A stretch of 64,000 nucleotides of DNA. Origin: Oligoflexus sp. FD111. Its GTDB lineage: Bacteria; Bdellovibrionota_B; Oligoflexia; Oligoflexales; Oligoflexaceae. This document shows, piece after piece, positions 26,386-60,998 of the stretch. The notes below the pieces were generated by a model. That model had not been told where the DNA came from. It saw only the letters and a program-made list of their open reading frames with translations, and made no database searches. Made by a program: the position numbers and the translations under genes. Each line of letters starts with the position of its first letter. Position 1 is the first letter of the stretch. The stretch covers positions 24,766-88,765 of the forward strand of contig JBMDZZ010000028.1 in NCBI GenBank assembly GCA_048816425.1. Reading direction: 5' to 3'.

Positions 26386-27008
26386 TTTGATTCACTTTCA
26401 TTCTGATCTTTTGATGTTATCGGAAGATTTTAAGGGCAGTGCTAGGTAGGGTTTTCCTAACGTCGGGATCGCTAGGCAAGAACCGTTCGGTATATGGTGA
26501 GTAAAGTATTTTTTATAGATAGTTAAAGGCGATATTGAACTAAACCAAGGAAACGAGGAGCTTCGAGGAAGTGTGCAGTACATTAACCGTTGGTACAGAT
26601 TGCAATACGTGCCTGTAGCCACGTTAGTTATTTTTCTCGTGTGATTGTTTGTTTGATTTAGTAGCGAAATTGCCGAAAAATGAAAAAGACTTATTGATGG
26701 TTTATGGATTTGGTCCTGTCAAGACAAAAGCCTTTGATTAGCTTATATTAAAGCATTTAAATGAATTTTTGTTCAATCAAGCAGGATAACTAATCTGTTA
26801 GTTCGAAATCGCGTTTCAGTGTAATCAGGGAAATATTGCGCATGCTGATCGGCATGTCTTAGATCAAGATTTCCGCTCTCTTAAGTTTCTAATCGTAGAG
26901 CTTTTTATAAACAATAACATCAAGTTATATCGGAGTTCGTTAAGAGTCTAGGCAATAGGCCGAATAAACTATTTGCAAGATTTTTTTACCTTAACCGCCA
27001 GGTTCACC

Positions 27009-28157: not shown

Positions 28158-28158
28158 T

Positions 28159-30294: not shown

Positions 30295-30353
30295 ACTTAG
30301 CTATTTTTACGGTCGAAACTTGTGCCACTGGGACTTTTCATTTTAAGGTATGA

Positions 30354-30824
30354 TCAAACGGCATTGGGCACTTGGTTTTCCAGCTTTAATCGAAATAGAA
30401 TTTGTTGCAAAAGATCTTCTCCCATCATCTCCGGTTCTGATTCAAGGTCAACCGCAATCTGATGAATCCAGTAATCGGCTTCTCCAACAGAAATTTCAAT
30501 ACTTCGTATTTTTTCGTTTTTCTGCTTATTTGCATTAGGATAAATTAGCCAAGCATTTTTCGATCCACTTGCAACCATATAAGCCAACATTTGATAGGCG
30601 TCTGCTGTGTTAATAGTATCCTTTTCAAAACTAGCTTTATACTTTGTATCTAAAATGGTGGACGATATAGGTTCTTGCCTCAGGCTGATTTGTAGGTCAG
30701 GGTAGCATTTCACATGGCTTGTGCGGTCCAAATACATTGACTTTTGCAAATGCAGATCAATACCATATGCAGATGCCGCTCGACTTAGACTTTTACTGAC
30801 ATAGCGCTCAAATAATGAAGCCAT
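30354..30824 (-). CDS. stand-alone McrC-like PD-(D/E)xK nuclease domain (156 aa)
   Basis: LFERYVSKSL ... STILDTKYKA ... ADAYQMLAYMV matches the McrC/LlaJI-type C-terminal nuclease block (FE.fv ... DtKYK ... yQ..aY). It lacks the N-terminal half of McrC. Confidence 0.5.
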   Translation of the reverse strand: MASLFERYVSKSLSRAASAYGIDLHLQKSMYLDRTSHVKCYPDLQISLRQEPISSTILDTKYKASFEKDTINTADAYQMLAYMVASGSKNAWLIYPNANKQKNEKIRSIEISVGEADYWIHQIAVDLESEPEMMGEDLLQQILFRLKLENQVPNAV

Positions 30825-30934
30825 ATTGTAAACGCCCCATTAACAAACGTCTAGCCCACCCAAAAGGAAAATCCTAGACTTGTCCTAGCAAGCCGGGCAT
30901 CCATTCAGCCTGAGTTGTTAGCCAGTCTACGAAT

Positions 30935-32032
30935 TTAAAGATTAGATGGGTAACCTATAAAATTTATTGGCTTTAGCTGACTATGCTTATCAACGGATCC
31001 TTTTAGTACATATATTCTACCGCCAATACTAAATTCGAATACTCTGTAGATACGGTATGACTCTCCGAAGATCTTTGATTTCTCAATTTCATTTAAAGAA
31101 ATTTTATACGGAGTGTTGATTCCGCCGTTAGTTGTTTTTACTTCTATGTAAATCACTGAACCATTTTCATCGAAAGACTCAATGTCGTAACCTAAACCGT
31201 CGCCTTCTTTATCAGATACCCACTTTACCCTTTCTGCTAGATCGGGACGTCCTATAGAGCTCAGCTTAATTTTCTCAGTTTCATAAACGAATTTTTCACC
31301 TAAATTACCTAGCTCCTTATTTGTTGCATATAGAGCGTCATATTCAGGTTTTGAAGAATTAAAGTTCCTGTTTTGTTCTGCAGGCAATTGCAGGATTGGA
31401 GGGTCAACAAATATTTCCTTTGAAGCATACTTTGGTACGATGATGAAACCAAGTTCCGACAATATTCTAAAGCATTTGGTCCCTCGGCCTCCTTTAAAAC
31501 CAAAAAGAACTTGCCCAGTCACGTACCTAGCAGCTAAGCCAACAAGTGCTTTAGGAGGATAACGTCGTTCGTTATATAGGACGTCATATCCTGTCGACTC
31601 TTTAAATTTGTGCGAAATTTTTTGCTCGTCAAAATCCCTGATGGCGTCGATAATATGCTCGTACGTTATATTGTCTGGAATTTCGCTATCAGGAAGATAC
31701 TCTCTCTTTTTATCAATGCGATTCTGTCCTGGGTCGAATTCGTCATTTAACCACCTTTCGACCTTACTATGTGTCGTTGTACTTATCTCAAGCAATACCC
31801 GAACTGCACGAATCACTTCGTAAACCCAAGTGTTTCGATGACTTAGGGAATAAGGTATGTTTGTAAACGGATTTATTCCAAAGGCATGTTTGCTTAGATA
31901 AATATCCCAGAGTTTTCTATCAGATTCTTTTTGAGTCTTTTTTAAAGCAAGGTCATATATAAGCTTCTGTATTTCTCTATCAGGAAAAGCTTCACGTATT
32001 GGAGTTGGAAGTTTCAATGATTCAAAATTCAT
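30935..32032 (-). CDS. DUF3883 (restriction-endonuclease-like) protein with a central domain resembling the ScoMcrA-type sulfur-binding/DNA-reader domain
   Basis: DUF3883: GEKFVYETEKIKL...VKWVSDKEGDGLGYDIESFDENGSVIYIEVKTTNG...YKISLNEIEKSK...YRIYRVFEF. The central segment YDVLYNERRYPPKALVGLAARYVTG...FKGGRGTKCFRILSELGFIIV contains Y-P-x-x-A, which I recall as the sulfur-pocket residues of the SBD. Confidence 0.65.
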   Translation of the reverse strand: MNFESLKLPTPIREAFPDREIQKLIYDLALKKTQKESDRKLWDIYLSKHAFGINPFTNIPYSLSHRNTWVYEVIRAVRVLLEISTTTHSKVERWLNDEFDPGQNRIDKKREYLPDSEIPDNITYEHIIDAIRDFDEQKISHKFKESTGYDVLYNERRYPPKALVGLAARYVTGQVLFGFKGGRGTKCFRILSELGFIIVPKYASKEIFVDPPILQLPAEQNRNFNSSKPEYDALYATNKELGNLGEKFVYETEKIKLSSIGRPDLAERVKWVSDKEGDGLGYDIESFDENGSVIYIEVKTTNGGINTPYKISLNEIEKSKIFGESYRIYRVFEFSIGGRIYVLKGSVDKHSQLKPINFIGYPSNL

Positions 32033-33032: not shown

Positions 33033-33620
33033 TTGGATTCAGTTCGTTGGTACGATCAGCATGCCCAAGATTTTTTTGATAGTACGATCAATGTAGAAAT
33101 GGGTGGTCTTTACTCCCGGTTTCTCAAAACGATGCAGCCAAAAGCAAAAATTTTGGATGCCGGTTGCGGAGCTGGACGGGATACTCTTTTTTTCTCAATG
33201 CAAGGGTATGACGTGCAGGCCTTTGATGCGGCACCCATATTGGTCGAGCTAGTCAGAAAGCATACCGGCATTAATGTGCAAGTCATGAGGTTTGAAGATC
33301 TCAAATGCCAAGATGAGTTCGATGGAGTATGGGCATGCGCCTCATTACTCCACTTTGATAAACATGAACTTGAAAGGGCATTAGCAAGGTTGTTTGCAGC
33401 CCTCAAGGTCGGTGGAGTACTTTATACTAGTTTTAAATATGGTACGGAAATATACGAACGTGATGGAAGGCAGTTTTATCCTTTTAACGAAGAAAGTTTT
33501 ATTGAGGTGATTACAGCTCATATGCATGTTGAACTCGATAGCATTTGGATAACTCATGATGTGCGTAAGGAAAGAACTGACGAGAAGTGGCTCAATTGTT
33601 TAGTACGACGTATTGAATAA
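33033..33620 (+). CDS. small class I SAM-dependent methyltransferase
   Basis: The SAM-binding motif is KILDAGCGAGRDTLFF, followed by VQAFDAAP and GVWACASLLH. The protein is 195 aa with a TTG start. The gene is sandwiched between IS fragments. Confidence 0.7.
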   Translation: MDSVRWYDQHAQDFFDSTINVEMGGLYSRFLKTMQPKAKILDAGCGAGRDTLFFSMQGYDVQAFDAAPILVELVRKHTGINVQVMRFEDLKCQDEFDGVWACASLLHFDKHELERALARLFAALKVGGVLYTSFKYGTEIYERDGRQFYPFNEESFIEVITAHMHVELDSIWITHDVRKERTDEKWLNCLVRRIE

Positions 33621-33746
33621 TTCCTGGAAATTTCCAGAATGGATGGCCGATTGTGATGTAGCGACGAGAGCTACCTCAAATATAACCATGTCACCACAAG
33701 TATCCCGTCCAGAAACAAACGATGACGCTGCTACAGGCTCATATTT

Positions 33747-35198
33747 TGAGGTGCGTTGAACATAATTGGAGAAAATCAAATCTTTTACTAAGCTATCATA
33801 ATTGCGAAGGAGATTCGATCGATACAAAAGATGATACCCCGTCGTTCTTTCATACACCCCAGCAAAAAGCCGACATTGTTCGCGGTGTCCAGTCGGCTTC
33901 ATCAATCCAGCAAGCGCTTGACCAGATTGGATTTACCAGCAGCTTATACTACAAATGGTCGAGGCAGCTTGAGGTTGGAATCAACACTAGCCTTCGCAAC
34001 TCAAAACCCCTAAATTCTGTCGAATTGAAGCGCCTAATGGCTGAAAATAGGCAGTTCAAAGAGGTTGTTCTCAACCAATCACTGGAATTGACCATTTTAA
34101 AAAAAGATTGAGTTTGGATCCATGAAGGAGGGCTTCAGAGTGAGCTACGAATATAAAGTCGCAGTGATTGAATTTGTCGAACGCTAACTGGAGCTTGGTC
34201 AATCGCGGAGCAATACTTTGGCAACTTTAAAGATTTCGCCTTCAACTTACTATATAGCTGGAATAAGGCTGTCCTTAATGCAGAAAAGCCTAAGAAACCA
34301 GCCAAGCCACATCCTATGAAATTGACTCCAGGTGAAAAAGAGCTCATCCTCGCAACAAAAAAAAACTATCCAACGATGAGGCATAGGCAGATATAGGACG
34401 TGATGCAAGGTGAAGGCTGCAAAATTTCGCCAAGTTCAGTTTTTACCGTCTTAAAAGCTAACGGAAAGGTTGAACCTTTTAAGCGGCGTGAAGCACCGTG
34501 GAAAGAGCCTAAATACGAAGTGCGAGCTAGAAACCTTATTTGGGGAAAGGATTGGACGAAGATCAAGATCAATCACGAAACCTGGCAGCTTTTGGCTCTC
34601 ATCGTTTTTTCTAGAAAAGTCATTGCATGGGATATCCAGCCAAGCATCAATGCGGGCCATATCAAGGCGATCTATAGCCAAGCACTTGCGGCCGAGCAAC
34701 TAACGCACAAAAAGCAAAAGCTCAAGTGACGGGTGGATCAAGGTTCGCCCAATACCTCTTGGTCATCAATGAGTTTATTGCAAGCCTTGCAGGTGAGCTA
34801 TCGCTTGCGCGAGTCAGAAGGCCTATCGACAATGCAATAACAGGGCGGTTTTACGGCACGATAAAGCAAGAAGAGATTTTTGTAGTTGGTAGCTATCCTG
34901 ACCTGTGATCAGCTAAATCTGAAATAGGAAACTACATCGAATTTTATAATGAATACAGGCCACATCAAGCAATATGGTATTTACGCCCGACTATATGCAT
35001 GAGCTGTACAATAAATCGAAAGCATTGGCTGAGCTAGGGGTCATGAAACATGCCACTAAACGTCGCCACCGCGAGTACTGAGAGTTGAGGGAAGCTTATG
35101 ATTTATAGCAGAAATTCAGGCAAGAGTTGACGAATGTGCCAAGCCAGGATATCACACAAACCTGATCGGCTTTCTCCAAGTTCGACTTAAGCACCACA
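33747..35198 (+). mobile_element. IS3-family insertion sequence, copy A (1452 bp), with orfA and orfB both pseudogenised
   Basis: Left end TGAGGTGCGTTGAAC, right end ...GTTCGACTTAAGCACCACA (reverse complement TGTGGTGCTTAAGTCGAAC, IR-like). The orfA-like segment is QQKADIVRGVQSASSIQQALDQIGFTSSLYYKWSRQLE. The orfB rve landmarks W..DWTKI, FSRKVIAWDI, DQGSPNTS and DNAITGRFYGTIKQEEIF are interrupted by several stops and frameshifts. Confidence 0.75.
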
Positions 35199-35400
35199 GA
35201 GTTACCAATTAATGAGTCAGAAACGCATTCAATTGGAATGGAGTTGACATTCGAAAGCCTTTTTTTAGAAGATAAGTCTATTTGAATTCGCTTTACTTAT
35301 TTATTTATCTTTTAGATGATGAGTTTGTATGCGGGCTTGACTTCCTCTATAATACTCTCGCATTATTTCACTAAATCGCAAACCAGCATGATGGGTCAAA

Positions 35401-36285
35401 ATGAAACTAGGTGGGCATCAGACTTTTCACCTCAGAGAGTCATGGCTTCATAAGGGCATGGCCTCTCTAGTGAACGACCATAGAATTTTCCAAGACGCCA
35501 TGGCGTCAAGTAGGCTTGGAGTTGGCAAGAACATGGTCGAAGCCATGCGGTATTGGCTTCAGGCATGTCAACTTGTAAAGATTGATGACGAATATAGCCT
35601 AAGTAAAGTTGGATCGAAAATCTATGAAGCTGATCCTTTTTTTGAGCTAGATGGTACAGTGCTATTGCTACATTATTTACTCGCAACAAACGAGAGGCAA
35701 GCAACTGCATGGCACTGGTTTTTTAATAAGTTTGGTGCGACCGACTTCGACATAGATGGAGTCCAAGTATACTTAACGACCTATCTTGCAAACACACTGA
35801 AGAAAAATAGTAGCCCAAATGTTATTAGGCGAGAGATACAATGTTTGCTCAAGATGTATACGGATGTCGAGTACAGGATACGGGAAACCCCAGAAACAGA
35901 AAACCCCTCTCCATTTTGTAGGTTTAAAAGCATTCAAAAGGATGGTGAGAAATATCGTAAAGTTGGATTTGACGTTAACTTGATCGATCCACTTATTTAT
36001 AGCTACTGCTTATATCTATTCTGGATAATGACTGAACGCCCAGCAACAATTTCTTTCGAAAATATTTGCAAGCAGCCGGGTTCACCAGGGGTTATCTTTG
36101 GACTTTCGAGTGATAGCAATATCTATATTCTCGAATTAGCAAAGGAAATCGATTCTGCTCCGATAGCAATTAGCAGGAGTGGAGGGTATTTTTCGATATC
36201 AATTGATGAAGAAAAAGCCGCTAAAACACTAGATTTTTATTACGATAAATATTCTGATCTTTTGCAGGAATCAAGATGGCTATAA
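35401..36285 (+). CDS. sspB: SspB-like DUF4007 protein (phosphorothioation-system nickase family)
   Basis: The N-terminus MKLGGHQTFHLRESWLHKG matches the DUF4007 signature as I recall it (GHETF.LR..WL.KG). It is the first gene of a 4-gene block with an ATPase, a PAPS-reductase-like protein and a cysteine desulfurase. Confidence 0.7.
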   Translation: MKLGGHQTFHLRESWLHKGMASLVNDHRIFQDAMASSRLGVGKNMVEAMRYWLQACQLVKIDDEYSLSKVGSKIYEADPFFELDGTVLLLHYLLATNERQATAWHWFFNKFGATDFDIDGVQVYLTTYLANTLKKNSSPNVIRREIQCLLKMYTDVEYRIRETPETENPSPFCRFKSIQKDGEKYRKVGFDVNLIDPLIYSYCLYLFWIMTERPATISFENICKQPGSPGVIFGLSSDSNIYILELAKEIDSAPIAISRSGGYFSISIDEEKAAKTLDFYYDKYSDLLQESRWL

Positions 36286-39200
36286 ATATTGAACTTCTTC
36301 CTTATTTGGCTGATGAGATTTCACTCGCACCTAGTTTTGACCGATCGACAAATCTAGAGGCAGATTTTAATAACAAGAAAAAGATAGATACGATTTATAT
36401 TTCCGAAAAATTTGCATCTACTTTAATTGATATTATTCATTCCGTCCTAAACGAAGATAGCAATCAGCGTGTACGGGTTTTTTCTGGCTCCCCAGGGCTC
36501 GGTAAGTCAACATTTGCGCTTCTACTCTTGAAGATATTATCTAAGAATCAAACCACAAATATAAGACAGCTCTTAGCTAAGGCTGAAACAAATAACGTCG
36601 AAGAACTTAGTGAGCTTTTGGAATCCTTCATCACCAAGAAAAGAGGAAACAAACTTCTTCCAATTATTATTAATGGCTATGAAGGCGACATCGAAAAAGC
36701 TTTTTTACATAAGCTTGAAAAGGCATTTAGTGATGCTGATTTAGCCAATGAGTGGAAAGAGCTCTTGGTAAAAACAACTGACTTGACTAGTATTATAAGA
36801 GACTGGAAAAAAAATTATCCTAGGGTCTATGATCAATATTTAAGTAGCTTAAATGAAAACTTATTGATCCAGAAATCATTTGAAAGTGGATTAAGGAAAG
36901 GGCAACTGAAGAATAGGGAAAAGTTTCTCGAAATTTGTGAACAAGTGACAGGCAGGACAAATGCAAATACCCCGTCTTCTGATGTCATTCACCTGTATAA
37001 AAGCGCCACCAAATTATTGTCTGAGCGTGGTTACGGGGGAGTTTTCGTTGTTTATGATGAATTCGGAAAATACTTAGAAAAAGGTATTCACTCACCGTCT
37101 AGTCTGAATGTTCAGTTTCTTCAAGACTTTGCTGAGTTTTGTGATCGTTCTGGTGAATATCAGTGTCATTTGGTCTTAATAACTCATATGTCGGTTAGTC
37201 AATATGCCTCGCAATTACCGATAAACATCCAAAACGAATGGGCGAAAATTGAAGGACGTTTCCAAGAAAATAGCTTCTATGATAGATCCGTAAATTACTA
37301 CCGCCTTATAGAAAAAGTTTTTGAAAAGAAACTTTCAGATAACAAGAGGTCTAAGCTTTATCGTAAAGCTAGGTCGTTCTATTCTAACTTTGTTGAGGTA
37401 TTTAACAAAGTTTCGGGCCTAGAAGGCTTTTTAGATGCCGTTAGCGTTGATCTCATCATTAATTGCTTTCCACTTCACCCTATTTCTTTAGCCTTTCTTC
37501 CATTTCTTTCACAAAAAGTGTCACAAAATGAAAGGACATTGTATACCTTTCTAACTAGAGAAGAAGATCATTCTTTAAATAGCTTTTTGCAGCAGAGTTA
37601 TGCTGAAGATGAAATACCATTGCTAATGCCGTCCAGATTGTATTTATATTTTAGTAATTCGATCAAAAGAGACCTTGGGCCTGGTGGTGTCTATCGGATA
37701 GGTTTAATCGCCGAAGAGGCGCTTAACACTGTTTCAGCTAAAGACAGCTTAGCTCACGAACTATTGTCCATTATTGCCCTGTCAGAAGTTATTAAGATGC
37801 CAAGACTTGCACCAGTTAATGAAGAGTTTCTAAAGGCAAGTTTGATAGGCCTGTATACTCATAAAGATGTAGCGAAGAAATTAAAGGAGCTTCAAGAACA
37901 GAAGTTGATTTTCTATAATCGCTTTAGGGAGCGCTTTGAGCTACGACAAGGATCCTCGGTGGATCTGCAAGAAGAGCTTGATAAAGGGCGAGAAATCAAA
38001 TTAACGAGCAAAGATCTTGTTGGTATTATTAAAAAATATAATAATTATGACTATATAATCACAAAAAAATATAATTTTAGCCATAATATTTGTAGATTCT
38101 ATGAAACATGTTTGATTTCTGTAGAAGAGCTGAAGGGAAAGAAATTTAGGTTATCTCCAGATTACGATCAAACAGATGGAATTGTTTACTACATTTTGCC
38201 TTTTGATCAAGATGAGCTTGCTGTAGCTAGGGAGTTAGTTGATCAAGTAAAATCCGAATTGGTTGTGTTTATACTTCCTAATAAGTTCATTGAATGCCGC
38301 AAGGATATCGAAGAACTAAATGCGATTAATAGTCTTTATAGCAATAAAGAACTGCTCGCTACAGGCCCCCTAGTCCGCAAGGAACTCGACTTCCATAAAT
38401 CAACCGTCTTAAAATCGATTGAGAGAGTTCTAGATCCGGTCGTCGGAAGGTTTGGCATTGACGTAACCCTAAAGTATAATAAAATCTTTGATAATGTAAA
38501 ATGCCGGTCTTTCATCGAACTGCAAAGGTATCTCGGAGAAGTATTCACACACGCATATAGCTCTTCTATTGATATAAATTCTGAGCTTATAAATAAACAT
38601 AAAGTTTCCTCGTCTGTTACTCTTGCTCGGCGGATTTTTATTCAACACCTTATTGAAAATCCAGATAAGAATGAATTAGCAATCGAGGGCAATGGCCCAG
38701 AAAAGGCACTTTATTATGCTATTAAAGAAGTTAGCGATGTTGTATGGGATAATACTTCAAACAAGTTGAAGCTCGGACCTAAAAACAAATTAGACCAATT
38801 ATACAAGATGTATCAGAAAATGCTTGCAAAAAGCTCCTCAGGCGTAAGCTTTGAAACAATTATAGATACATTTAGTAAACCACCATTTGGACTGAGAAAA
38901 GCCGTTATTCCATGTTATATCGCAATTTTTGATTTAATATCGGAAAACCAGGTTAATCACTATTTTCAGGACGCGTACGTCTCTAATCCAGACGGAGAAC
39001 ACTACGATTTAATCTTCCGCCATCCGAAACTATCTCGCATTCAAATGACTAAAATAACAGACGTCCATGAAGTGTACCTTAGAACTGTAGCTACTGCTTT
39101 CGGAGCAAAGCAAGTCGACAGTATTCCCGATATCGTCAGTGCAATCTTCAACTGGAGAAAGGCCATTCCTGAATATGTCAAATATTCGGATGAAGTGTCT

Positions 39201-39947
39201 ATCAAAGCAAGGCGAATCCTTGTAGCCATCGACAGCGCTGAAGAACCTGATAAACTTCTCTTCAAAAGTCTTCCCGAATCATTAAGATTTAATACAGAAA
39301 ATGAAGATTACCTGCGGAAACCATTGTTAGTGGAAAAAGAGTTGCAGGAAGCTTTGATTGACGCTAAGCAAGCATATTCAAATCTACTTTTTAAAATTAG
39401 AGATCACCTCGAAGAGGCTATTCAGATACTAAATGACAAATGTCTATCCAAGAAACTCAGAATCGATACCAAAAAAGATCTAGCTGGTTCCTATAAACTT
39501 ATTTTTTCAGCTCTTGAAAGCAGGATTAGAAACCATAAGTTTTCGAAAGTAACGACTCATTTTATAGAACGATTTATGACTTTCGATACCACCAGCCATA
39601 AGCAGTATTTTGTAGAAACTATTGGAGATGTCTTAACTGGAGCCAGTCCTCGAGTTTGGGAGGGTAAGACGATAAACTTATTTCTTTTCACGCTTCATAA
39701 AGTCATGGAGGAAATAATCCATGTTTCTTCGACTGTATCATCAGAACTCGAAGGACATTCTGTAGTTGCAATTACTAATATTAGCAATAACCAGAGTAGA
39801 TACATTGATTTAGGTGCAAAGCAGGGGCTTAAGACTAAGCATCTAAAGCTTAAAAATGAGATACTTGAAAAATTCGAAGATGACTGGTCACCAACAGATA
39901 TCAAAATTCTCCTAGTTGATTTGTTATCGACATTGGATTTAAACTAG
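36276..39947 (+). CDS. sspC: SspC-like large P-loop ATPase (BrxC/DUF499-style)
   Basis: 1223 aa with Walker A FSGSPGLGKST and Walker B-like VFVVYDEFGKY. The start overlaps the sspB-like stop by 10 nt. Confidence 0.65.
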   Translation: MAINIELLPYLADEISLAPSFDRSTNLEADFNNKKKIDTIYISEKFASTLIDIIHSVLNEDSNQRVRVFSGSPGLGKSTFALLLLKILSKNQTTNIRQLLAKAETNNVEELSELLESFITKKRGNKLLPIIINGYEGDIEKAFLHKLEKAFSDADLANEWKELLVKTTDLTSIIRDWKKNYPRVYDQYLSSLNENLLIQKSFESGLRKGQLKNREKFLEICEQVTGRTNANTPSSDVIHLYKSATKLLSERGYGGVFVVYDEFGKYLEKGIHSPSSLNVQFLQDFAEFCDRSGEYQCHLVLITHMSVSQYASQLPINIQNEWAKIEGRFQENSFYDRSVNYYRLIEKVFEKKLSDNKRSKLYRKARSFYSNFVEVFNKVSGLEGFLDAVSVDLIINCFPLHPISLAFLPFLSQKVSQNERTLYTFLTREEDHSLNSFLQQSYAEDEIPLLMPSRLYLYFSNSIKRDLGPGGVYRIGLIAEEALNTVSAKDSLAHELLSIIALSEVIKMPRLAPVNEEFLKASLIGLYTHKDVAKKLKELQEQKLIFYNRFRERFELRQGSSVDLQEELDKGREIKLTSKDLVGIIKKYNNYDYIITKKYNFSHNICRFYETCLISVEELKGKKFRLSPDYDQTDGIVYYILPFDQDELAVARELVDQVKSELVVFILPNKFIECRKDIEELNAINSLYSNKELLATGPLVRKELDFHKSTVLKSIERVLDPVVGRFGIDVTLKYNKIFDNVKCRSFIELQRYLGEVFTHAYSSSIDINSELINKHKVSSSVTLARRIFIQHLIENPDKNELAIEGNGPEKALYYAIKEVSDVVWDNTSNKLKLGPKNKLDQLYKMYQKMLAKSSSGVSFETIIDTFSKPPFGLRKAVIPCYIAIFDLISENQVNHYFQDAYVSNPDGEHYDLIFRHPKLSRIQMTKITDVHEVYLRTVATAFGAKQVDSIPDIVSAIFNWRKAIPEYVKYSDEVSIKARRILVAIDSAEEPDKLLFKSLPESLRFNTENEDYLRKPLLVEKELQEALIDAKQAYSNLLFKIRDHLEEAIQILNDKCLSKKLRIDTKKDLAGSYKLIFSALESRIRNHKFSKVTTHFIERFMTFDTTSHKQYFVETIGDVLTGASPRVWEGKTINLFLFTLHKVMEEIIHVSSTVSSELEGHSVVAITNISNNQSRYIDLGAKQGLKTKHLKLKNEILEKFEDDWSPTDIKILLVDLLSTLDLN

Positions 39948-39979
39948 TACCTATACAAAAGTATTGGGGTCCGTTTTTT

Positions 39980-40798
39980 ATGTCACAATTCTTATACGAC
40001 GCAAATAGGCGTCAAATTTGTCCACTGTCTGGAGGAAAAGATTCAACTGCACTCGCAATTTTTCTGAAAGACAAGATTCCAAATCTAGAGTACGTCTTTA
40101 CTGATACGGGTGCCGAACTCCCTGAGACTTATGAGTATCTCGATAAATTAGAGGCTTTTTTAGGTAAACCAATCGTCCGATTAAATTCTGACAAACCGTT
40201 TGATTATCTTTTGAAAAGGCATGGTGATTACCTACCCTCTCCTAGAGCCCGCTGGTGTACTATTGAAATGAAAATAAAGTCGTTTGAGAAGTTTATCGGT
40301 GATGATCCTATTGAAAGTTATATTGGAATTCGAGCAGACGAAAATCGTGATGGTTATATTTCAAAGAAAGAATCCATAAAACCCCGCTATCCCTTTAAAG
40401 AGCTCGGAATAGACCTTGGGGGAGTGAATAAACTACTCGACCAAGCAGGAATCGGACTGCCTAAATACTATGAATGGCGATCAAGATCGGGGTGCTATTT
40501 CTGTTTCTTTCAAAGAAAAATCGAATGGGTAGGTTTAAAAGAAAGACATCCCGATCTATTTGAAAAAGCAAAAGAATACGAAACCCGAAGCTACAGGGGG
40601 GACGGGGTGAAATTCACTTGGGTTCAAGACTCCCCACTAGAGGAGATCGCGACTAACGCGGAATTTATAAAAGAAAATCATGCCAAAAGAATGGAGAGAG
40701 AGACTAAGAAGCAATCCAACAAACGCCTTTCCGATATTTTTAAAGATGTAGTGTCAGATGACGATATGGAAGACTCTTGTCTAATTTGTGACCTTTAG
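39980..40798 (+). CDS. sspD: SspD-like PAPS-reductase/ATP-pyrophosphatase family protein (DndC-related)
   Basis: The PP-loop is CPLSGGKDST. C-terminal cysteine clusters are SGCYFCFF and SCLICDL. The protein is 272 aa, shorter than canonical DndC. Confidence 0.75.
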   Translation: MSQFLYDANRRQICPLSGGKDSTALAIFLKDKIPNLEYVFTDTGAELPETYEYLDKLEAFLGKPIVRLNSDKPFDYLLKRHGDYLPSPRARWCTIEMKIKSFEKFIGDDPIESYIGIRADENRDGYISKKESIKPRYPFKELGIDLGGVNKLLDQAGIGLPKYYEWRSRSGCYFCFFQRKIEWVGLKERHPDLFEKAKEYETRSYRGDGVKFTWVQDSPLEEIATNAEFIKENHAKRMERETKKQSNKRLSDIFKDVVSDDDMEDSCLICDL

Positions 40799-40933
40799 CA
40801 TCACTATTTCGCGCTAGTACACTAGCGCAATGTCTTTTCCTGCTTGAGTTGTGATCTCAAAAGTAATACTTTGCCATTAGTCTTACTGCATCGCTTCTTG
40901 CGATGAAAAACTTCCAAATTCGAAGCAGATCAG

Positions 40934-42058
40934 ATGGTTGATGCGATTTATCTAGATTACAATGCCACGAGCCCGCTTTCTCCTTCCGTTATAAATTATA
41001 TTAAGGAAGGCATGATTAGAGATTGGGCTAATCCCTCCTCAGAGCATGATGCTGGCTATGAAAAAGCTATTGAAATACGGAAGAGCCGAAGCCGAATAGC
41101 CGATTTTCTTGGGTGCTCGACTAGCCAAATCACATTTACCAGTGGCGCTACAGAATCAATCAATACTGTATTGAGTGCTGATACGCTAGCAAGTCTAGGT
41201 GTTAAAACGGTCATTACCTCACCTATGGAGCATCACGCCACCCTTGATAGGGCGAAATACCTTGAAACAAAGGGTTTTCATATTAAAATGGTCCGGACTT
41301 TACCCACAGGTTCTTTGGATTACGATCATTTAGATCATCTCGCAAGTTTTAGTAAAAAAGCCATTATTTCCCTTCTATATACTAACAACGAGACTGGCAT
41401 AATCAATGATGTTAAAAAAATTTCTTCAATATCTCAACGTCACGGATGTCTAGTTCATATTGATGCCGTGCAGGCTCTTGGCAAAATCAAGTTTAGCTTA
41501 AACGAGCTGGAGGTGGATTTTGCCAGCTTTTCCGGCCATAAAATTGGATCACTTAAAGGAATCGGTATGCTGTATAGAAAGCAGCATGAAATTGTCCCCT
41601 TGATGCATGGAGGCGGACAAGAAAAAGCGCTTCGTCCAGGTACATACAATTTACCAGGTATCAAGTCGATAGAAATGGCGATATCAGATATCGATTTTGA
41701 TGCTATTGAAAAACGAGGATATGAGGCTCGCTTCGCTATCGAACAGCTGTTCAAACAGATCTTTCCTAGCGCCATAGTGAATGGCGCAGAGTGCGATAGA
41801 GTTTATAACACTATCAGTCTCGCCATACCCGAACATTCGAGCAAGGCAATTATGTTAGGAATGTCAAGGAGTGGTATTTATATTTCAACAGGTTCAGCCT
41901 GCTCATCAGGAATTGAAGTTGGAAGCCATGTACTAAAAGAGTTTACTGAGTTTGAAAAGAATTCTATCAGAATTTCGTTTTCTATATCGATGCTGGATCC
42001 ATCTGTAATACATACAATTTCGATGAAATTAAATGATTACAAGGTAAAGTCAATTTGA
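40934..42058 (+). CDS. sspA: cysteine desulfurase (NifS/IscS/DndA-SspA type)
   Basis: Class V aminotransferase fold. The PLP-lysine motif is SFSGHKIGSLKGIG and the catalytic Cys loop is STGSACSSG. Confidence 0.8.
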   Translation: MVDAIYLDYNATSPLSPSVINYIKEGMIRDWANPSSEHDAGYEKAIEIRKSRSRIADFLGCSTSQITFTSGATESINTVLSADTLASLGVKTVITSPMEHHATLDRAKYLETKGFHIKMVRTLPTGSLDYDHLDHLASFSKKAIISLLYTNNETGIINDVKKISSISQRHGCLVHIDAVQALGKIKFSLNELEVDFASFSGHKIGSLKGIGMLYRKQHEIVPLMHGGGQEKALRPGTYNLPGIKSIEMAISDIDFDAIEKRGYEARFAIEQLFKQIFPSAIVNGAECDRVYNTISLAIPEHSSKAIMLGMSRSGIYISTGSACSSGIEVGSHVLKEFTEFEKNSIRISFSISMLDPSVIHTISMKLNDYKVKSI

Positions 42059-42383: not shown

Positions 42384-42848
42384 ATGATTCTATTTGCAAC
42401 ATCTGCTGATAAAGCAATGATCGCTCTTTTATTTGCTAGCACTGCTATCAGCATTACGCCGAGGGTCAAAAAAATTTCGGAAAATCATGAACACATGGGG
42501 TCTGTTCGAGTTTTAGCAGGCAAAAATCAATTTAGCTTAGATAAGCTTGATATGAGATTCACTTGGCTTTCTAAGAGAAAACTTAAGTCTTTTAAAGTGT
42601 TAAATTGGATCTACAACATGACTAGCTACTTTCACACTAAAAGAGAAATAAGCAGCCACGAGAAAAAATCCCCACCAAAAGCTTATACATTCCCTACAAT
42701 AGAAAGTTCTGCAATCTCCACTAAAAACAAAGATATTATGAAAAGAGAGGAAGTAGGATCTGAGTTCAAATTCACTTTCGAAGTGAAAACTGAGGACTTC
42801 ATGCCGAATTCTAAAGAGAATGACATTTTACAAGGCTCCCGCTCTTAG
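42384..42848 (+). CDS. doubtful hypothetical ORF in the 870-bp spacer between the modification and restriction-like genes
   Basis: 154 aa, Lys/Ser-rich, with one N-terminal hydrophobic stretch. I see no recognisable motif or convincing RBS. Confidence 0.15.
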   Translation: MILFATSADKAMIALLFASTAISITPRVKKISENHEHMGSVRVLAGKNQFSLDKLDMRFTWLSKRKLKSFKVLNWIYNMTSYFHTKREISSHEKKSPPKAYTFPTIESSAISTKNKDIMKREEVGSEFKFTFEVKTEDFMPNSKENDILQGSRS

Positions 42849-42927: not shown

Positions 42928-44700
42928 ATGAGATGGAAAGAAAATAATTGGATAAAGTTTTTAGAAGGATACTGCAAAGGCAATGGGCAGATCCAGGACG
43001 AATATGTCCGGAAAATAGCTTCTGCACTTAGACTCGATGAGCCGCTTGAAATAAAATTTCCTTGGCAAGAAGAAATTCTCCAAAAATTTAAGGATCCAAA
43101 CAATCTGCAAGTTATTATATTGACTGGGACTGCTGGGGATGGAAAAACACGCCTATGTAGAGAAATATACCAGGAAGTTTGTGGAACCAGCTTTTCTGAA
43201 GAGTCATGGAACTCAAAAAGCTATTTTAGTAATGAATTAAGCACGATCGTTAAAGATTTTTCTGAACTGAAGGATGAGAAATCAAAGGTAATTGGTGAAT
43301 TGATAGAAGTGTTAAAAAATGGATTTGCTACAAAACAAATTCTAATCGCAGTGAATGACGGAGTGTTCATAGAAGCTCTAGATAGTTATATTGATGACGC
43401 TAATTTAGCAGATCATAAAAAGGAAGCTAAGTTATTAAAAGAGATAGTAGAAGATAAAATAAACATTGGAATTAGTAATTGTGAAAAGCAGGGACTTATA
43501 AATTTAATAAACCTTTCAAAATTGGATGCAAAAGAAAACTTCAAGTTAATTTTTAAAGCTATCCTTGACAATAGTGGATGGAATCAATGCAAAGATTGTA
43601 TTGGATCTATCGAAAATAGTTGCCCTATCTACTCTAAATATCAGATTTTTAAATCTCGCGCTGAAACAATCGAAAATTTGGCAAATATCATCTTGCTGCT
43701 GCAACTCAATAACCAGCATTTCACAATTAGAGAGCTACTCAATCTTGTATCGAATACTTTAGTGTCATCTATTCCTAAAAGCAAAAAATACCGGATCACA
43801 GACTTTGAGCATTCTAATAGCATTTTTACTTGCAAAACTATATCAACTATAAACGAAATCAACAAAGCGAATATAGAATCTAGCATAGAAGTAGGTTTTT
43901 GGGGCTTGAACCTCGGTCCTCAAAAGTCCTTATCTAAAAGGCCTTATTCAGAGATAAATAAACTGAGGTTTGGTGATACTTCCAGCAATTACTGGGATAG
44001 CCAGATATCTAAGCCGGAAGAAAGGCATTTTACTATACCAATTGATGAATTTCTTCGAGGAAGCGAAAAATCTGCTATTTACAGCGAATCTAGCAAAACA
44101 TGGATGCCAACTCTTCGTCGATCAAGAATGCAATTATATGCTTTTTGCAAAGACAATGATGAAAAGCTGTTTCATCTACAAAAGTATCCTTCATATGGCA
44201 TATATAAGGAAAAAATTTATAATCAGCTCACGGCAAAAAAAATGTGTAGTGATTTAAAGGTCAAAACGTCAATAATTCTTGCCTTGAACAGGGCTTTTCA
44301 TGGGCGCTTTATATCTGATAAAGCCGGGGAACTTTTCATTCCCGAGAAAGGCCAGGGATCTTTAGTATCTACTACAGTATTTCATGGTGAAGAAATTCGT
44401 GAAAAATATATTACGATTGAAACTTTAGGCAACGATTTTTCGTTATCGGGCGCTAGAATTGAACCAATAGTAAAAATATTTGTAGATAAGCAAGAAGTAA
44501 AAGTTTCGTTAACTGTTGAGGTCTTTGACTACCTTGATCAAGTATCCAAAGGTGCCCCACCTAATACAGCTGATCCACGAATCTATAAAAAACTTTGTAT
44601 TCTTCGATCTAAGCTAGCTTCAATGATTCGACCTAATAGAAGAATTGAAACCTATAAAATTAGTAATGGCCAATTTAAAATTGTCCCAATGGAGTTTTGA
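42928..44700 (+). CDS. DptF/SspF-like P-loop protein (first gene of a DndFGH/SspFGH-type PT-dependent restriction trio)
   Basis: 590 aa with an N-terminal Walker A ILTGTAGDGKTRLC. The assignment rests on its position, size and the identity of its two downstream partners. Confidence 0.55.
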   Translation: MRWKENNWIKFLEGYCKGNGQIQDEYVRKIASALRLDEPLEIKFPWQEEILQKFKDPNNLQVIILTGTAGDGKTRLCREIYQEVCGTSFSEESWNSKSYFSNELSTIVKDFSELKDEKSKVIGELIEVLKNGFATKQILIAVNDGVFIEALDSYIDDANLADHKKEAKLLKEIVEDKINIGISNCEKQGLINLINLSKLDAKENFKLIFKAILDNSGWNQCKDCIGSIENSCPIYSKYQIFKSRAETIENLANIILLLQLNNQHFTIRELLNLVSNTLVSSIPKSKKYRITDFEHSNSIFTCKTISTINEINKANIESSIEVGFWGLNLGPQKSLSKRPYSEINKLRFGDTSSNYWDSQISKPEERHFTIPIDEFLRGSEKSAIYSESSKTWMPTLRRSRMQLYAFCKDNDEKLFHLQKYPSYGIYKEKIYNQLTAKKMCSDLKVKTSIILALNRAFHGRFISDKAGELFIPEKGQGSLVSTTVFHGEEIREKYITIETLGNDFSLSGARIEPIVKIFVDKQEVKVSLTVEVFDYLDQVSKGAPPNTADPRIYKKLCILRSKLASMIRPNRRIETYKISNGQFKIVPMEF

Positions 44701-44704
44701 TATT

Positions 44705-46195
44705 ATGAAACAATTAGAATTCAGAGATATCAGAAAGGACTATAAACCCAACCTTAACCATGCAATTATAGAACAAATTTGGGGACATCGATTCAGAGTA
44801 GAGCAAAACCCAATGCTACTCCTTTGTGAGCTTTTGTGCGTACTTGAAAATCAGTTTTTCTCTAAAGAAACTGGAGAGATTCAGCAAGTTTTTTCTCCAG
44901 AACATACCCATCTAAAATACAAACATTCAGATAAGATTGGTTTACGATTTTTATTATATAAAAATGATAAATTGGAAAGCATTAAGAAAAGTAGTCAAAA
45001 TGAAAAAGAAAAATTTAAGATGCAAATTGAATATTTGAAAACTTCTGACCAACTTTCAGATTCGGACATCACTCATCTAGAGAAACAGTTCGACTCATTT
45101 GATAGCTTCTATAATTCATGCAAGATTTTGAGCTCATTAACTTTCGATCCATTGTCAAATAAACGATGGGGATCTAAGTTTGTATATCCCTTAAGTCGTG
45201 ATCTTTTATGGAGTGACTACAACAACATTAAGAAAAACTTCGATAGGCGATTTTTCGCTAGAGGAGGAGAACTTATCTATTTGATGCTTTCTAGAACATC
45301 GGAAACCAAAAGAGATGAACTAGAGCAGCTATTCGATGATTGGATGAAGAGCAAAGAGGATTCTTATTCTAAACTGGTCAAGATTATATATCCGGCGGTT
45401 ACCGAGCGTGATAAAGTAAACAAGCCTACCAGGCTTGGGCACCTACCATATGTTAGTTCAAGCTGCTTTGAAACACTTGCCGATGATCTTATTACAATCC
45501 TAAAGCTTGATTTAGAAAGGCTAGATAAAGCTAAACTTATGGCTGACATGATTGGTTTTCATATAGGCAATTATATTTTAACTATAGGTGAGATGTTCTC
45601 GGATAGCAATTCATCTGTCATAGAAAAGAAACCTCATTTCATTGTTGAGATTCCACTAAAGTCTTCAAACAGCATCAGGAAAAGTTCTATTGAAAGTATT
45701 TCCAGGCAAAAGAACAAATTAAAAAATACACTTAACAATCTCTTCCCCGCAATTGTGAATAATTATTTTTTTGAAAGCTTAGATGTCGAAGGTATAGATC
45801 AAGAAAAAAAAGAGGCAAAAAAATCAGCTGAAAAATACCTCTCAGACCACATTATGCCTTACCCTAATGCGTGTTTTCGGCACATTGGTTTTGTTTCAAA
45901 AAAACATTCGAGAAGCTATAGATACGTGTTTTCAGAAGATTTTCTTCAATCTATTGTTATAACAGTTCTTGGCGCAGGGAAAAGACTAGAATTTTCCAAA
46001 TTCATTAAGACTCTTGAGTATCGCTATAATATCTTTGTCGACAGAGTCCCGGATTCTAGCTATTCGATTTTACAAACCGACCTGAATAAAAACACGAAAA
46101 ACTTGTCAAATCTACTCTATCAAATGGGAATGCTTCGCCACCTCTCGGATGCATGTAGCTATGTTATCAACCCATATAGAGAGGATGCAATTTGA
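44705..46195 (+). CDS. DptG/SspG-like protein (middle gene of the trio)
   Basis: ATG 44705 lies 5 nt after the previous stop, with GGAG 11 nt upstream. 496 aa with no motif I can name. Its stop overlaps the next start (ATTTGA). Confidence 0.45.
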   Translation: MKQLEFRDIRKDYKPNLNHAIIEQIWGHRFRVEQNPMLLLCELLCVLENQFFSKETGEIQQVFSPEHTHLKYKHSDKIGLRFLLYKNDKLESIKKSSQNEKEKFKMQIEYLKTSDQLSDSDITHLEKQFDSFDSFYNSCKILSSLTFDPLSNKRWGSKFVYPLSRDLLWSDYNNIKKNFDRRFFARGGELIYLMLSRTSETKRDELEQLFDDWMKSKEDSYSKLVKIIYPAVTERDKVNKPTRLGHLPYVSSSCFETLADDLITILKLDLERLDKAKLMADMIGFHIGNYILTIGEMFSDSNSSVIEKKPHFIVEIPLKSSNSIRKSSIESISRQKNKLKNTLNNLFPAIVNNYFFESLDVEGIDQEKKEAKKSAEKYLSDHIMPYPNACFRHIGFVSKKHSRSYRYVFSEDFLQSIVITVLGAGKRLEFSKFIKTLEYRYNIFVDRVPDSSYSILQTDLNKNTKNLSNLLYQMGMLRHLSDACSYVINPYREDAI

Positions 46196-49100
46196 AAAGC
46201 TTAGCCCGTTACTATTTCAACAAAATCGTGAGAGAATACCAAGATTGGCTTCCTACCAATTCTACCCACGGTACACCCGGTAGAGTCATTCTCAGTGAGT
46301 TTGATTCAGATATTGTTAGTGAGATCTTTGATACATTCCATTCTTCTGACCTGAAGATTTCAGAGCCAGGGAGCGAGGATGGCATAATACTCCTTCTAGA
46401 AGATCATGAAATATATGTAGACATCAAAGAAAAAAAATATTCATTCGCCGACTTAACCCGAGAGCGAAATCGGGCCGGCAAGTTTTTTTGTGTCATGTTT
46501 ATAGCTGAAACAAAGCCTACTCACGAACAAGTTGCTAGTATTCATCAAGAAAGTATCTACGAAGAAGGAGAACTTGAAGAATGGGTAAATATATCGCTGT
46601 CCTATCATGCAAAAAGAGATCACTTCCCAATATCTCATACACGAGATATCGCTAAATTTCTAAACGAGTTGACACATAAAAAGTGGAATCATAGACCATC
46701 TATAAAGTTGAAGGAAATTAGCAGTTTCATTGCATCGGTAATTGATGACACTATCCAAGATGGTCTATTCTGGGATGCGCTTGGAAGAAATTTTACTAAA
46801 TTGGGAGGAATAAATCGCCTTGATAATTGTAGGAAGTTAGAAGGTGCAAAGTCTAAGTATAGATCTATTTTTCGAAAAGAGATCTCAAATACTCTCATTC
46901 CCGATCAGAACTTTTGGAGAGCTGTATACAAAGATCGGGAAGTAGAAAAATCAGAAATAGAAGATAACTTAAAAGACATTCTAGAAGAAGACTCAATTGA
47001 TTACTCATGTTTCTGTCAATCAATATCTGCATATTTCGAAAGCTACTTTGCTAACAGACCAGATACAAGTCTCCTTCAGCAGGAGATAAAAGACAAGTTC
47101 GATTCAACCTTTCCCTTCACCTCTGTACTTCATGCAAAAAAAACTAAATCTAAACTTCAGATTGGTGGGGAGACAAAAAAATTCTTATTAGAAAATGATG
47201 TAAATATTTCGGAAAATGATGAACTACTCCTTGAAAGCTTAGACTCCCGAGATAACAAGCCCGATAGGAATGAAATTAGGAGTTTCTACTTCCCTCGGCA
47301 GAGGCTACTTTCTACTGATCCTAAGTTAGATAAAGCATGGAAGAAAGAAGTCAGCTCAAGCAAAGATGTGGAATGTAGTAATTTACTTGATGGTATTCTC
47401 AAAGTATTGTCTAGCTACATACTTTTGACTGATATTGGCAACGATTCAGTATTGTTACGACAAAGAAGGGATAGAAGAAAGTCATCTCTTCAAAAAAAGA
47501 ACGTTGATGCCCTAAATTTCTTTCTTCATGAATATAAAGACCTCGACAAATTCTGGAGTCTTTTTGGTGATAAATTTGAACTCGATATAAAAGTATTTGA
47601 GTATGCTAATGATTTAGCCGATGAAAAACTAAAAGTTAGGAGTGGTAAACAAGCAAATATACTTGAATTTGAAATACTTCTTTATTCCATAGATCCGAAA
47701 TCGCCCTCTCAAGTATGGCACCTAAAATGGATCTTTGATCACAATGGCTTCGAAAGCATCAAACATTATGAATTGAATCATCTAAAATCAAGAAGAGGCT
47801 ACTACCACAAGCATGAATTAGCAATCGATCCTCTGTTTGTAAAACGTGCAGATAAGAACCCAAGTATAAAAAACAAAGAGATGTTTCAGGCGAGCGGGGC
47901 ATCGCGAAAACCTGGTTCAGTGGTCAAGAAAACAGATAAGCCAGATGATCTAATTTCAAAATTCCTTAAAGATCTTCAAAAGCACGGTCGACTATCAGAA
48001 CATGACCTAAATATACTAGAAAATTCTTATGAGAAATTTTATGAAGATTGGAAGCAGGCAATAGATCTGAATTCGACTACACCTATTACATCTGACCTTA
48101 CTTTCTTCAATTCTAGTTTCAATAGCTTTATTGACCTTATTGATAAAAAAACCTTAGAAGCTGAACACAAGAGAGAATTGTTTAAGCATATAAAAGCTGC
48201 CCACACTATTTCAGTAAAAGACACTCCTAATTATCTTTTATATCTTCCCTGGTCGCCCTTTAGTCTGCTAATGACATGGATGAAAAACAAAATTTTTCAT
48301 CAGATCGCAGGTTCTTATAAAAATGGATCGTTTAGAATTGGAAATCTTGATGATGGGGTGTTTCCTGATATTATAACAGAACTGGTGGAAAGCTTCGGCA
48401 ATACTTTTTATATAAATGATCACTCCGCCCCTCTTATATCAACGGCTTCGATCTGTGGCTATTATGAGTTTAGCTCTCTTGCTGATTCTAGAAATTCACT
48501 TTCAATCAAAGAAATAAAAAACGTCATGAATTCGGTGCTTCAAAAATTTTTGGAAGTCTATCCAAATCAGCGAGATCATATCGATATACTATTCGAGGGA
48601 ATAGGTTCATTTGAGCATCTTTTTGCTATCTATGAAGAAGCCTTAAAATTCTCAAGTGAACAAGAAGATCATTTTTCGATTCGAATACTATTCCACAGCA
48701 AGAATAATCGGGAGTTTTTAGATCTTTCATATGAAAGAATTACCGAAACATTCAACTCTCATTTATTAGACACTGATATTAAGATAGTGATAGTTGACAA
48801 CATTGAGTCCATTGAAGAGAACGAACTTGATTTAATTTTTAGCTTTGATCCTTTGTCTGTTGAAAAAAAATTGGCCCAGGACTCTGAAAAATTCTGCCTT
48901 TCGAATGAAAATTATGCGTTTTGGGAATATTGCAATACTAGAAAACTACCCTCAAACAAACTGTCTTTAAAAAGCTCTTTTGCGGTAAATAATCATAGAA
49001 TGGATTCAGTTTCAGCTGTCTTTCACAAGATTTCGATGATAACAGCTGCTAGGGATCGAACTGAGTCTTATTGTTTTGAAGTCTCACAGGACGTCATTAA

Positions 49101-54716: not shown

Positions 54717-54740
54717 ATTGAGTATAGAAAGCAGATCAAT

Positions 54741-58465: not shown

Positions 58466-58926
58466 AATGTTATAGTTCCTTGCATTGGAGTAACTTCACT
58501 ACCAATGAAATTATTTTTAGCTAAATTAGTTACGATAGTTTCTAGGCCTATGAGATCTTGTGGCATTTCATCATGCCATGATTTGATGATGGATAGTCCA
58601 CCATTTGCAAATTCCTCAAAGCAACGTACCATTTCATCACTATTTTCTTCTTTGAATATAGTTATACTTTTTGAAGCCGCTAGCGCAATTAGATATATGA
58701 CTCTCATGGCCTCCTTATCTTTTGAAAATATAAACTCCTGTATATCATCTTTTGGTTCACCATGGTCGAACGGAACTCTCTTATTTTTTGCATAACCAAG
58801 AACAGCGGCGAAACATAGAAAATCCTTGATAGTAGCAAACACACTCTTTCCTGTGAGTTCAGTAGGCTTCTTAGTAAACATATCATATAGATCATCGTAT
58901 CTTTTAGATCGAAATATGTTCCGCAA
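58462..58926 (-). CDS. small helical protein between the ATPase and the PLD-helicase (possibly 'dnd system-associated protein 4'-like)
   Basis: 154 aa from a TTG start (or 139 aa from ATG 58881). It is tightly coupled on both sides. I can name no catalytic motif. Confidence 0.45.
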   Translation of the reverse strand: MRNIFRSKRYDDLYDMFTKKPTELTGKSVFATIKDFLCFAAVLGYAKNKRVPFDHGEPKDDIQEFIFSKDKEAMRVIYLIALAASKSITIFKEENSDEMVRCFEEFANGGLSIIKSWHDEMPQDLIGLETIVTNLAKNNFIGSEVTPMQGTITF

Positions 58927-58927
58927 T

Positions 58928-60976: not shown

Positions 60977-60998
60977 GATATAGATCCATACAAGTATA

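Follow-up and report, generated by a model that had tools for sequence, protein, structure and literature searches.

In the characterised Ssp systems, phosphorothioate (PT) modification falls on one strand of the motif 5′-CpsCA-3′ (published systems), and the modification genes have been described together with different restriction partners. The partner is SspE in Vibrio cyclitrophicus FF75 and E. coli 3234/A, whereas in the founding SspABCD-SspFGH system of Vibrio anguillarum FF-93 sspBCD stands beside the co-transcribed genes sspF-G-H, and only a Walker A motif in SspF and an FtsK/SpoIIIE motor in SspH are recognisable in the restriction proteins (Wang et al. 2021, mBio, PMC8092258). SspFGH of FF-93, the only one with a known phenotype, was found to be toxic to E. 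coli lacking PT and to give 10^2-10^3-fold protection against T1, T4, JMPW2 and EEP (PMC8092258). In the same survey ~84% of the sspBCD clusters were without SspE or SspFGH, and the cluster of Bacteriovorax sp. Seq25_V was classified as such an orphan (Table S2, PMC8092258). Here, a stretch of 64,000 nucleotides (nt) from Oligoflexus sp. FD111 (GenBank assembly GCA_048816425.1, contig JBMDZZ010000028.1, positions 24,766 to 88,765 of the forward strand; hereafter the window) was analysed, and families were assigned by profile matches to Pfam, NCBIfam and PADLOC models. The block at window positions 35401-42058, for which an sspB-sspC-sspD-sspA-like module had been proposed from the letters alone (the original prediction), is very likely the modification half of a complete SspABCD-SspFGH PT restriction-modification-like defence system. 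Judged by its gene content, the locus is an additional member of a known, published kind of anti-phage system and not a new kind, and it adds an SspABCD-SspFGH system from a metagenome-assembled genome whose lineage is labelled Oligoflexus (Bdellovibrionota).

Gene content of the ssp locus

Two co-oriented units were found on the plus strand, sspB-C-D-A (35401-42058) and sspF-G-H (42928-51396), the latter starting 869 nt downstream of sspA. PADLOC Ssp models match all seven proteins (E-values, given in brackets here and below, from 5e-57 to 9e-240), and because these models and the motifs described below assign all parts, the seven genes are taken to be SspABCD-SspFGH of Wang et al. 2021; all sequence-level defining features of SspABCD and SspFGH that could be looked for were present. 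The seven ssp open reading frames (ORFs) are full length with intact catalytic motifs, and an independent Logan contig (L001, SRR31093534) covers sspB to sspG at 100% identity.

The first gene, sspB (35401-36285, 294 aa), encodes a DUF4007 protein (Pfam, 1.2e-64; PADLOC SspB, 4.9e-57, 191 bits vs 22 bits for BrxP), which corresponds to the nickase of the published system and matches the solved SspB structures 6JUF and 6LB9 in a PDB sequence search (3e-14); the string GGHQTFHLRESWLHKG was found at its residues 4-19. Overlapping it by 10 nt, sspC (36276-39947, 1223 aa) encodes a large BrxC-like P-loop ATPase with the Walker A motif GSPGLGKS at residue 71, which scores higher with the PADLOC SspC model (8.9e-155, 515 bits) than with BrxC (1.1e-61, 207 bits); SspC has no Pfam family match, and the PDB sequence search with it was empty. 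The product of sspD (39980-40798, 272 aa) is a PP-loop ATP pyrophosphatase of the 3′-phosphoadenosine-5′-phosphosulfate (PAPS) reductase fold (Pfam PAPS_reduct, 9e-9) and is assigned to SspD by PADLOC (3.9e-110, 366 bits vs 32 bits for BrxP and 21-22 bits for DndC). Its PP-loop SGGKDS lies at residue 17, and Cys93, Cys172, Cys175, Cys267 and Cys270 are conserved without exception in seven homologs that represent two lineages. The sole solved-structure match of SspD was a chain named 'PptA' (entry 21fy, 1.5e-5), which may be a PT-related enzyme of the PAPS-reductase fold whose structure was solved recently.

Contiguous with sspD and starting 135 nt downstream of it, sspA (40934-42058, 374 aa) encodes a pyridoxal 5′-phosphate (PLP)-dependent cysteine desulfurase (Pfam Aminotran_5, 2e-58). 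The PADLOC scores for SspA (5.6e-92) and DndA (1.3e-89) are close, NCBIfam places NifS (TIGR03402, 277 bits) first and DndA (TIGR03235, 242 bits) second, and SspA is thus not separable from DndA or NifS by score alone. The PLP lysine is Lys203 (SGHK) and the catalytic cysteine Cys323 (GSAC), corresponding to Lys201 and Cys314 of SspA from V. cyclitrophicus FF75 (PMC7188994).

The description of this block in the original prediction was borne out in most respects: the four ORFs with their coordinates, strand, overlap and quoted strings were all found, the calls of a DUF4007 protein, a short PAPS-reductase-like PP-loop protein with Cys clusters and a NifS-type desulfurase downstream of sspD agree with the profile matches, and SspABCD is preferred over DndABCDE, the Ssp profiles being far ahead. 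Its statement that no DndB- or DndE-like gene is present applies to the block 35401-42058, in which none of DndB, DndD and DndE was found, but not to the window, which holds a dnd_assoc_4 gene (58462-58926) and a gene for a DndD-like CxC ATPase (58928-61069). SspE had been reported absent from the window, and no gene or remnant of it was found: none of the scanned window ORFs matches DUF262 (GmrSD_N) or GmrSD, and an SspE-type protein of DUF262 and DUF1524 is thus not among them; tblastn queries with the GmrSD proteins from L020 and L021, two of the related loci (see below), gave no match.

What had been overlooked is the restriction partner. SspF (42928-44700, 590 aa) is a P-loop NTPase that matches the PADLOC SspF model over its full length (9.1e-240) and, like SspF of FF-93, carries a Walker A motif (GTAGDGKT at residue 67). 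Its AlphaFold2 model (predicted local distance difference test, pLDDT, 82; predicted template modelling score, pTM, 0.85) shows a weak resemblance to AAA+ proteins in the PDB (clamp-loader, ORC, ClpC; E ≥ 0.014). For sspG (44645-46195, 516 aa as listed) the PADLOC SspG model (3.6e-191) covers residues 41-511, and the true start is probably the ATG at 44666 or 44705. The overlap between sspG and sspH is 4 nt. SspH (46192-51396, 1734 aa; PADLOC SspH, 6.5e-159) ends in an FtsK/SpoIIIE-type translocase ATPase domain as does SspH of FF-93; residues 1481-1655 match Pfam FtsK_SpoIIIE (3.7e-34), a Walker A motif GQTKSGKS lies at residue 1510, and SspH also matches the FtsK structure 2IUS (5e-32). PDB sequence searches gave no match for SspF or SspG. 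All three proteins align end to end and free of frameshifts with those of 15 related loci. Additionally, the C-terminus of SspG resembles MAD7 (NF047733, 5e-8) and the SspH motor matches PADLOC mad8 (5.8e-18). There are hints here that SspFGH may share effector components with the methylation-associated defence system MADS; literature searches on a link between MADS and PT and on recent SspF, SspG and SspH work were empty or uninformative.

A solitary sspBCDA cluster with a purely epigenetic role and no cognate restriction, as implied by the original prediction, would place the locus with the orphan majority of surveyed clusters, Seq25_V among them (PMC8092258). This reading is contradicted by the intact, co-oriented sspFGH genes 869 nt downstream and retains almost no probability. 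As sspFGH had been missed, the implied picture of a modification module without a reader is incorrect, and the sequence data support regarding the earlier interpretation as incomplete rather than wrong.

Within the spacer between sspA and sspF, a 154-aa ORF (42384-42848, plus strand) was considered as an eighth gene and rejected as an orphan missing from all related loci. It has no family match, relaxed Pfam searches yielded noise only, and a search against 1.84 billion representative proteins returned the ORF itself and one marginal match (2.6e-4); it is probably not a gene. Comparison of six intergenic spacers with all fetched loci by tblastx and blastn revealed no gene relics.

The mechanism proposed for the locus is taken over from the published systems, the features seen here being those of the sequence. 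SspA with its PLP cofactor at Lys203 would strip sulphur from L-cysteine to give a persulfide on Cys323 and would hand the sulphur to SspD, the PP-loop ATP pyrophosphatase with five invariant cysteines; SspA and SspD are known to form a complex (PMC7188994). SspB would nick one strand and the ATPase SspC would drive or target the reaction, in which sulphur would replace a non-bridging phosphate oxygen on one strand of a short motif. SspFGH would then patrol the DNA and damage PT-free DNA, by which phage replication would be blocked. The modification chemistry of the four proteins would be the same as in the SspABCD-SspE systems of FF75 and 3234/A, whereas the partner there, SspE, is PT-stimulated and SspFGH is predicted to attack PT-free DNA. 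The DndABCDE-DndFGH systems share the logic of a PT mark combined with a restriction complex that is encoded by three genes, contains a motor and damages DNA without the mark, although SspFGH has no significant sequence identity to DndFGH (PMC8092258).

Several results weigh against the assignment of a complete and active system. None of the NCBIfam models recognises SspB or SspC, and SspA falls below the curated NifS and DndA cut-offs of NCBIfam, therefore its dedication to PT rests on gene position. No nuclease domain was found in SspFGH by relaxed Pfam searches of SspG and of three N-terminal segments of SspH or by a fold search with SspF. SspB and SspC are 21-46% identical to any relative, and their specificity may therefore differ from CCA; PT, its motif and its strandedness at this locus are what we infer by analogy with the published systems. 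Regarding expression, promoter-like and terminator-like matches were no commoner than expected from shuffled sequences, and the only suggestive sites were TTGACT-18-CATTAT at 35337-35366 and a hairpin at 40811-40828 after sspD. Finally, the 869-nt spacer and the pseudogenised insertion sequence (IS) elements at the flanks may mean that expression or coupling has been lost.

These IS elements are two full-length but decayed members of the IS3 family on the plus strand, the left one at 33746-35198 with an HTH_Tnp_1 fragment and the right one at 54740-56169 with an IS3 transposase fragment (NF033516, 1.7e-10). They are 85% identical over 1460 nt, lie in direct orientation and bracket a segment of ~19.5 kb that comprises sspBCDA, sspFGH and a methyltransferase cassette. 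No convincing target-site duplications were found that would support an origin as composite transposon. Both copies are pseudogenes with indels, stop codons and broken reading frames, which would suit a decaying, non-functional relic, i.e. an island between IS copies in which the genes have lost their expression or coupling. A truncated McrC fragment nearby, the unexplained spacer and the lack of the LexA-like regulator gene that precedes sspB in three related loci (L020, L021 and L024) point the same way. The intact state of all seven ssp ORFs argues against decay, and because SspFGH is toxic to E. coli cells that lack PT (PMC8092258), selection would keep the modification genes active. The relic interpretation is therefore considered improbable, and the complete SspABCD-SspFGH system remains the preferred interpretation.

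Relatives of the two halves

For comparison, 15 gammaproteobacterial sspFGH loci (13 distinct ones for the count of neighbouring genes) and five Bdellovibrionota-type loci were used, denoted by L numbers where single loci have to be told apart. In a scan of genome contigs the single SspF protein retrieved no relative, whereas an alignment as query did. Compared with the 15 gammaproteobacterial loci, SspF is 50-56%, SspG 49-54% and SspH 44-48% identical, whereas the identities are 31-51% for SspD, 24-36% for SspB, 21-25% for SspC and 31-33% for SspA. The Bdellovibrionota-type loci L020-L022 are closer to the modification proteins, with 40-42% for SspB, 44-46% for SspC, 74-76% for SspD and 43-51% for SspA. 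Accordingly, the nearest SspC relatives (41-46%), as far as named, are from Bacteriovorax, Halobacteriovorax, Halobacteriovoraceae or Bdellovibrionales, and all named ones among the nearest SspF relatives (50-56%) are marine Gammaproteobacteria. Because the writer proteins are nearest to the Bdellovibrionota type and SspF, SspG and SspH nearest to Gammaproteobacteria, the system is, on these identities, a mosaic in which a writer of the Bdellovibrionota type is combined with a reader of the gammaproteobacterial type.

In every related sspFGH locus that holds flanking DNA, sspFGH adjoins sspBCD, and three arrangements were seen: sspBCD-FGH without sspA, sspDCB divergent from sspFGH with sspA beyond sspD, and sspDCB divergent from sspFGH with sspA after sspH. 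The order sspB-C-D-A-F-G-H was met only at the present locus and never among the 15 sspFGH loci related to it. The system of FF-93 likewise differs in that it uses the housekeeping IscS, whereas the present locus has a dedicated sspA between sspD and sspF; in comparison with the gammaproteobacterial sspFGH loci in general, the present SspB and SspC are of the Bdellovibrionota-type lineage (21-36% identical). The Bdellovibrionota-type sspBCD...sspA clusters, e.g. that of Bacteriovorax sp. Seq25_V, hold the closest SspB, SspC, SspD and SspA proteins (40-76%) and also have sspD followed by a co-oriented sspA, although one variable gene parts the two, which in L020-L023 is a gene of ~500 aa on the opposite strand. 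The sspFGH genes are missing from all five Bdellovibrionota-type loci, in which the modification genes are paired instead with GmrSD/SspE-like proteins, with a PLD-SNF2-HATPase cassette or, in the case of L021, with a pbe-like trio. The mosaic indicates that Ssp systems exchange their writer and reader halves as modules across phylum borders, and the combination of divergent SspB and SspC (no relative seen exceeds 46% identity) with a conventional SspFGH offers a natural test of which protein sets specificity.

The difference in nearest taxa between the modification and restriction halves would also be expected from an assembly chimera of two organisms' DNA. L001, as a second assembly, has the identical sequence across the sspA-sspF junction, and the guanine-plus-cytosine content is similar on both sides (0.38 vs 0.36), both of which argue against a chimera. 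A further reading concerns bacteriophage exclusion (BREX) systems. In BREX type 4 (BrxP-BrxC-PglZ-BrxL), BrxP is in effect a fusion of SspD and SspB, BrxC is a homolog of SspC, and the PT-making core is homologous (PMC12914056), which speaks for a BREX type 4-like system. The present locus has separate sspB and sspD genes in place of a fused BrxP; the scanned ORFs of the window include no PglZ, no BrxL and no such fusion, and the Ssp models are ahead for SspC and SspB as given above and for SspD (366 vs 32 bits for BrxP). The profiles that could have moved the ATPase and DUF4007 genes to a BREX-like or other non-PT system, a possibility raised with the original prediction, did not do so. That the locus is either BREX type 4-like or a chimera is thus highly improbable, and it continues to be treated here as a mosaic SspABCD-SspFGH system.

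Two features of the related loci are absent from the window. In L020 (8888-9124), L021 (8889-9125) and L024 (8888-9124) a 78-aa gene with a LexA_DNA_bind (winged-helix) domain overlaps the start of sspB; it has no tblastn match in the window, where an IS3 copy sits upstream of sspB instead. Beside sspBCD of L020 (1431-6626), L024 (3574-8762) and L019 (12257-16634), i.e. in Bacteriovorax, Halobacteriovorax and Rheinheimera, a cassette of PLDc_2, SNF2/DEAD helicase and HATPase_c_3 proteins was observed, with an extra protein of ~265 aa in L020 and L024. This cassette, which is absent from the window, may be a further PT-linked effector set.

The Pbe-like trio beside the right insertion sequence

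Three genes related to Pbe systems were found on the minus strand immediately beyond the right IS. The pbeA-like gene (56324-58465) encodes a fusion of HKD nuclease and superfamily 2 (SF2) helicase (PADLOC PbeA, 3.2e-236) that scores 491 bits with TIGR04095, under the cut-off of 600, and has HAK...GSAN at residue 143 and DECH at residue 397. The dnd_assoc_4 gene (58462-58926) matches TIGR04062 with 76 bits against a cut-off of 74.25 and shares 37% identity with its positional counterpart in L021; dnd_assoc_4, or PbeD, has been described as a DndE cognate (PMC10853773). The pbeC-like gene (58928-61069) encodes a CxC ABC ATPase (PADLOC PbeC, 6.9e-137; DndD, 1.6e-39) whose profile match starts at residue 32, with a Walker A motif at residue 66 and CIC at residue 365. 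A candidate PbeB ORF of 71 aa (60999-61214, minus strand) is without homology support. The DndD- and DndE-like genes of the window (58.4-61.1 kb) thus fit Pbe/CxC models better than Dnd models; the trio stands beside Ssp and not Dnd, and the published linkage to dndCDEA is absent.

In the metagenomic locus L021 (4167-8798) the trio of pbeC, dnd_assoc_4 and pbeA directly abuts sspB, therefore a functional link between Ssp and Pbe is conceivable. One may go further and regard the Pbe-like trio of the window (56324-61069) as the ancestral reader of the PT mark, and also its main one, and sspFGH as a later add-on, giving one writer with two restriction modules. L021, in which the trio lies upstream of sspB on the same strand, holds the closest SspC relative examined (46%), and the trio in the window is intact with its CxC hook, HKD motif and DECH motif. 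Yet only one of the five Bdellovibrionota-type loci carries such a trio, its proteins are 29-38% identical to those of the window, and in the window it is on the strand opposite to ssp with an IS between. Moreover, Pbe is tied experimentally only to Dnd double-strand PT (PMC6459918), and CxC systems were argued to occur and act independently of PT genes as well (PMC10853773). A main role of the trio is consequently rather unlikely, albeit the most plausible of the alternatives considered, and sspFGH is kept as the cognate reader. An IS-mediated inversion that would have parted the pbe trio from sspB was also considered and dropped, the IS copies being direct and not inverted.

Methyltransferase genes and the remaining window

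Convergent with sspH follows a gene on the minus strand (51587-53620, 677 aa) whose product is assigned to TIGR04096, 'DNA phosphorothioation-associated putative methyltransferase', with 618 bits against an NCBIfam cut-off of 150. It forms a two-gene cassette with a 187-aa gene (53592-54155, minus strand), the first of the cassette, for which family searches including relaxed Pfam gave only noise. The TIGR04096 gene is convergent after sspH in 10 of the 13 distinct related sspFGH loci, and homologs of the 187-aa protein (35-46% identity) lie directly upstream of it in L006, L010, L011, L014, L017, L018 and L019. The cassette also occurs next to dndBCDE of V. cyclitrophicus, next to sspBCD of Rheinheimera and, in Methylomarinum, next to a desulfurase gene and BREX genes, and a version of ~500 aa with the TIGR04096 core stands between sspD (or a GmrSD gene) and sspA in L020-L022. 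The AlphaFold2 model of the TIGR04096 protein (pLDDT 81, pTM 0.46) has the core of a class I S-adenosylmethionine methyltransferase as its central domain, and in the 677-aa form the N-terminal and C-terminal domains are homologous to each other. In fold the protein is closest to small-molecule O-/S-methyltransferases, namely ChlM, DhpI, the bacillithiol S-methyltransferase NmbA, TehB and Hen1, and nothing meaningful was obtained in the PDB sequence search. No functional literature on TIGR04096 was found, and a full-text search yielded one passing mention in a genome paper.

A further class I methyltransferase of 195 aa is encoded just left of the left IS (33033-33620; Pfam Methyltransf_25, TehB 2e-9, weak TPMT). 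Homologs with 38-44% identity are present in L013 (2635-3192), L015 (2667-3266) and L020 (17696-18265), in both lineages at most ~2 kb from ssp modification genes and in L015 80 nt upstream of sspA.

Methyltransferase genes thus occur repeatedly next to clusters of both the ssp and the dnd type, in two phyla, with folds that resemble small-molecule O-/S-methyltransferases and not DNA base methyltransferases. Conceivably, one sspBCDA writer licenses unrelated readers, SspFGH and the Pbe-like trio, within an island of ~28 kb, in which the cassette of the 187-aa and TIGR04096 proteins and the 195-aa methyltransferase are functional PT accessories and not bystanders; this proposal is speculative and unlikely to hold in full. 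The accessory methyltransferases may methylate sulphur species or the PT sulphur, or may tune the PT level. The recurrent and little studied TIGR04096 cassette beside PT clusters merits experiment.

Left of these genes, the region 26973-32032 of the window encodes a 394-aa protein without family match, followed by a HerA-type ATPase of 711 aa (DUF87; PADLOC HerA, 2e-18), the truncated McrC fragment (156 aa) and a NOV_C/DUF3883 protein (PADLOC PDC-S36, 2.8e-46). The rest of the window (4-25017 and 62249-63852) is a conflict island. It contains two Rhs/FG-GAP toxin genes, one for a 2084-aa protein with SpvB/TcdB domains and one for a 1293-aa protein, which may be truncated because the gene reaches the left edge of the window, as well as a PT-HINT pretoxin fragment, a Fic protein, a YhcG PDDEXK nuclease and a DUF4268/NucS-like protein. 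Additionally, AbiEii toxin genes were observed at 10633-11289 and 24010-25017, the second being preceded by an AbiEi_4 antitoxin gene at 23441-24058.

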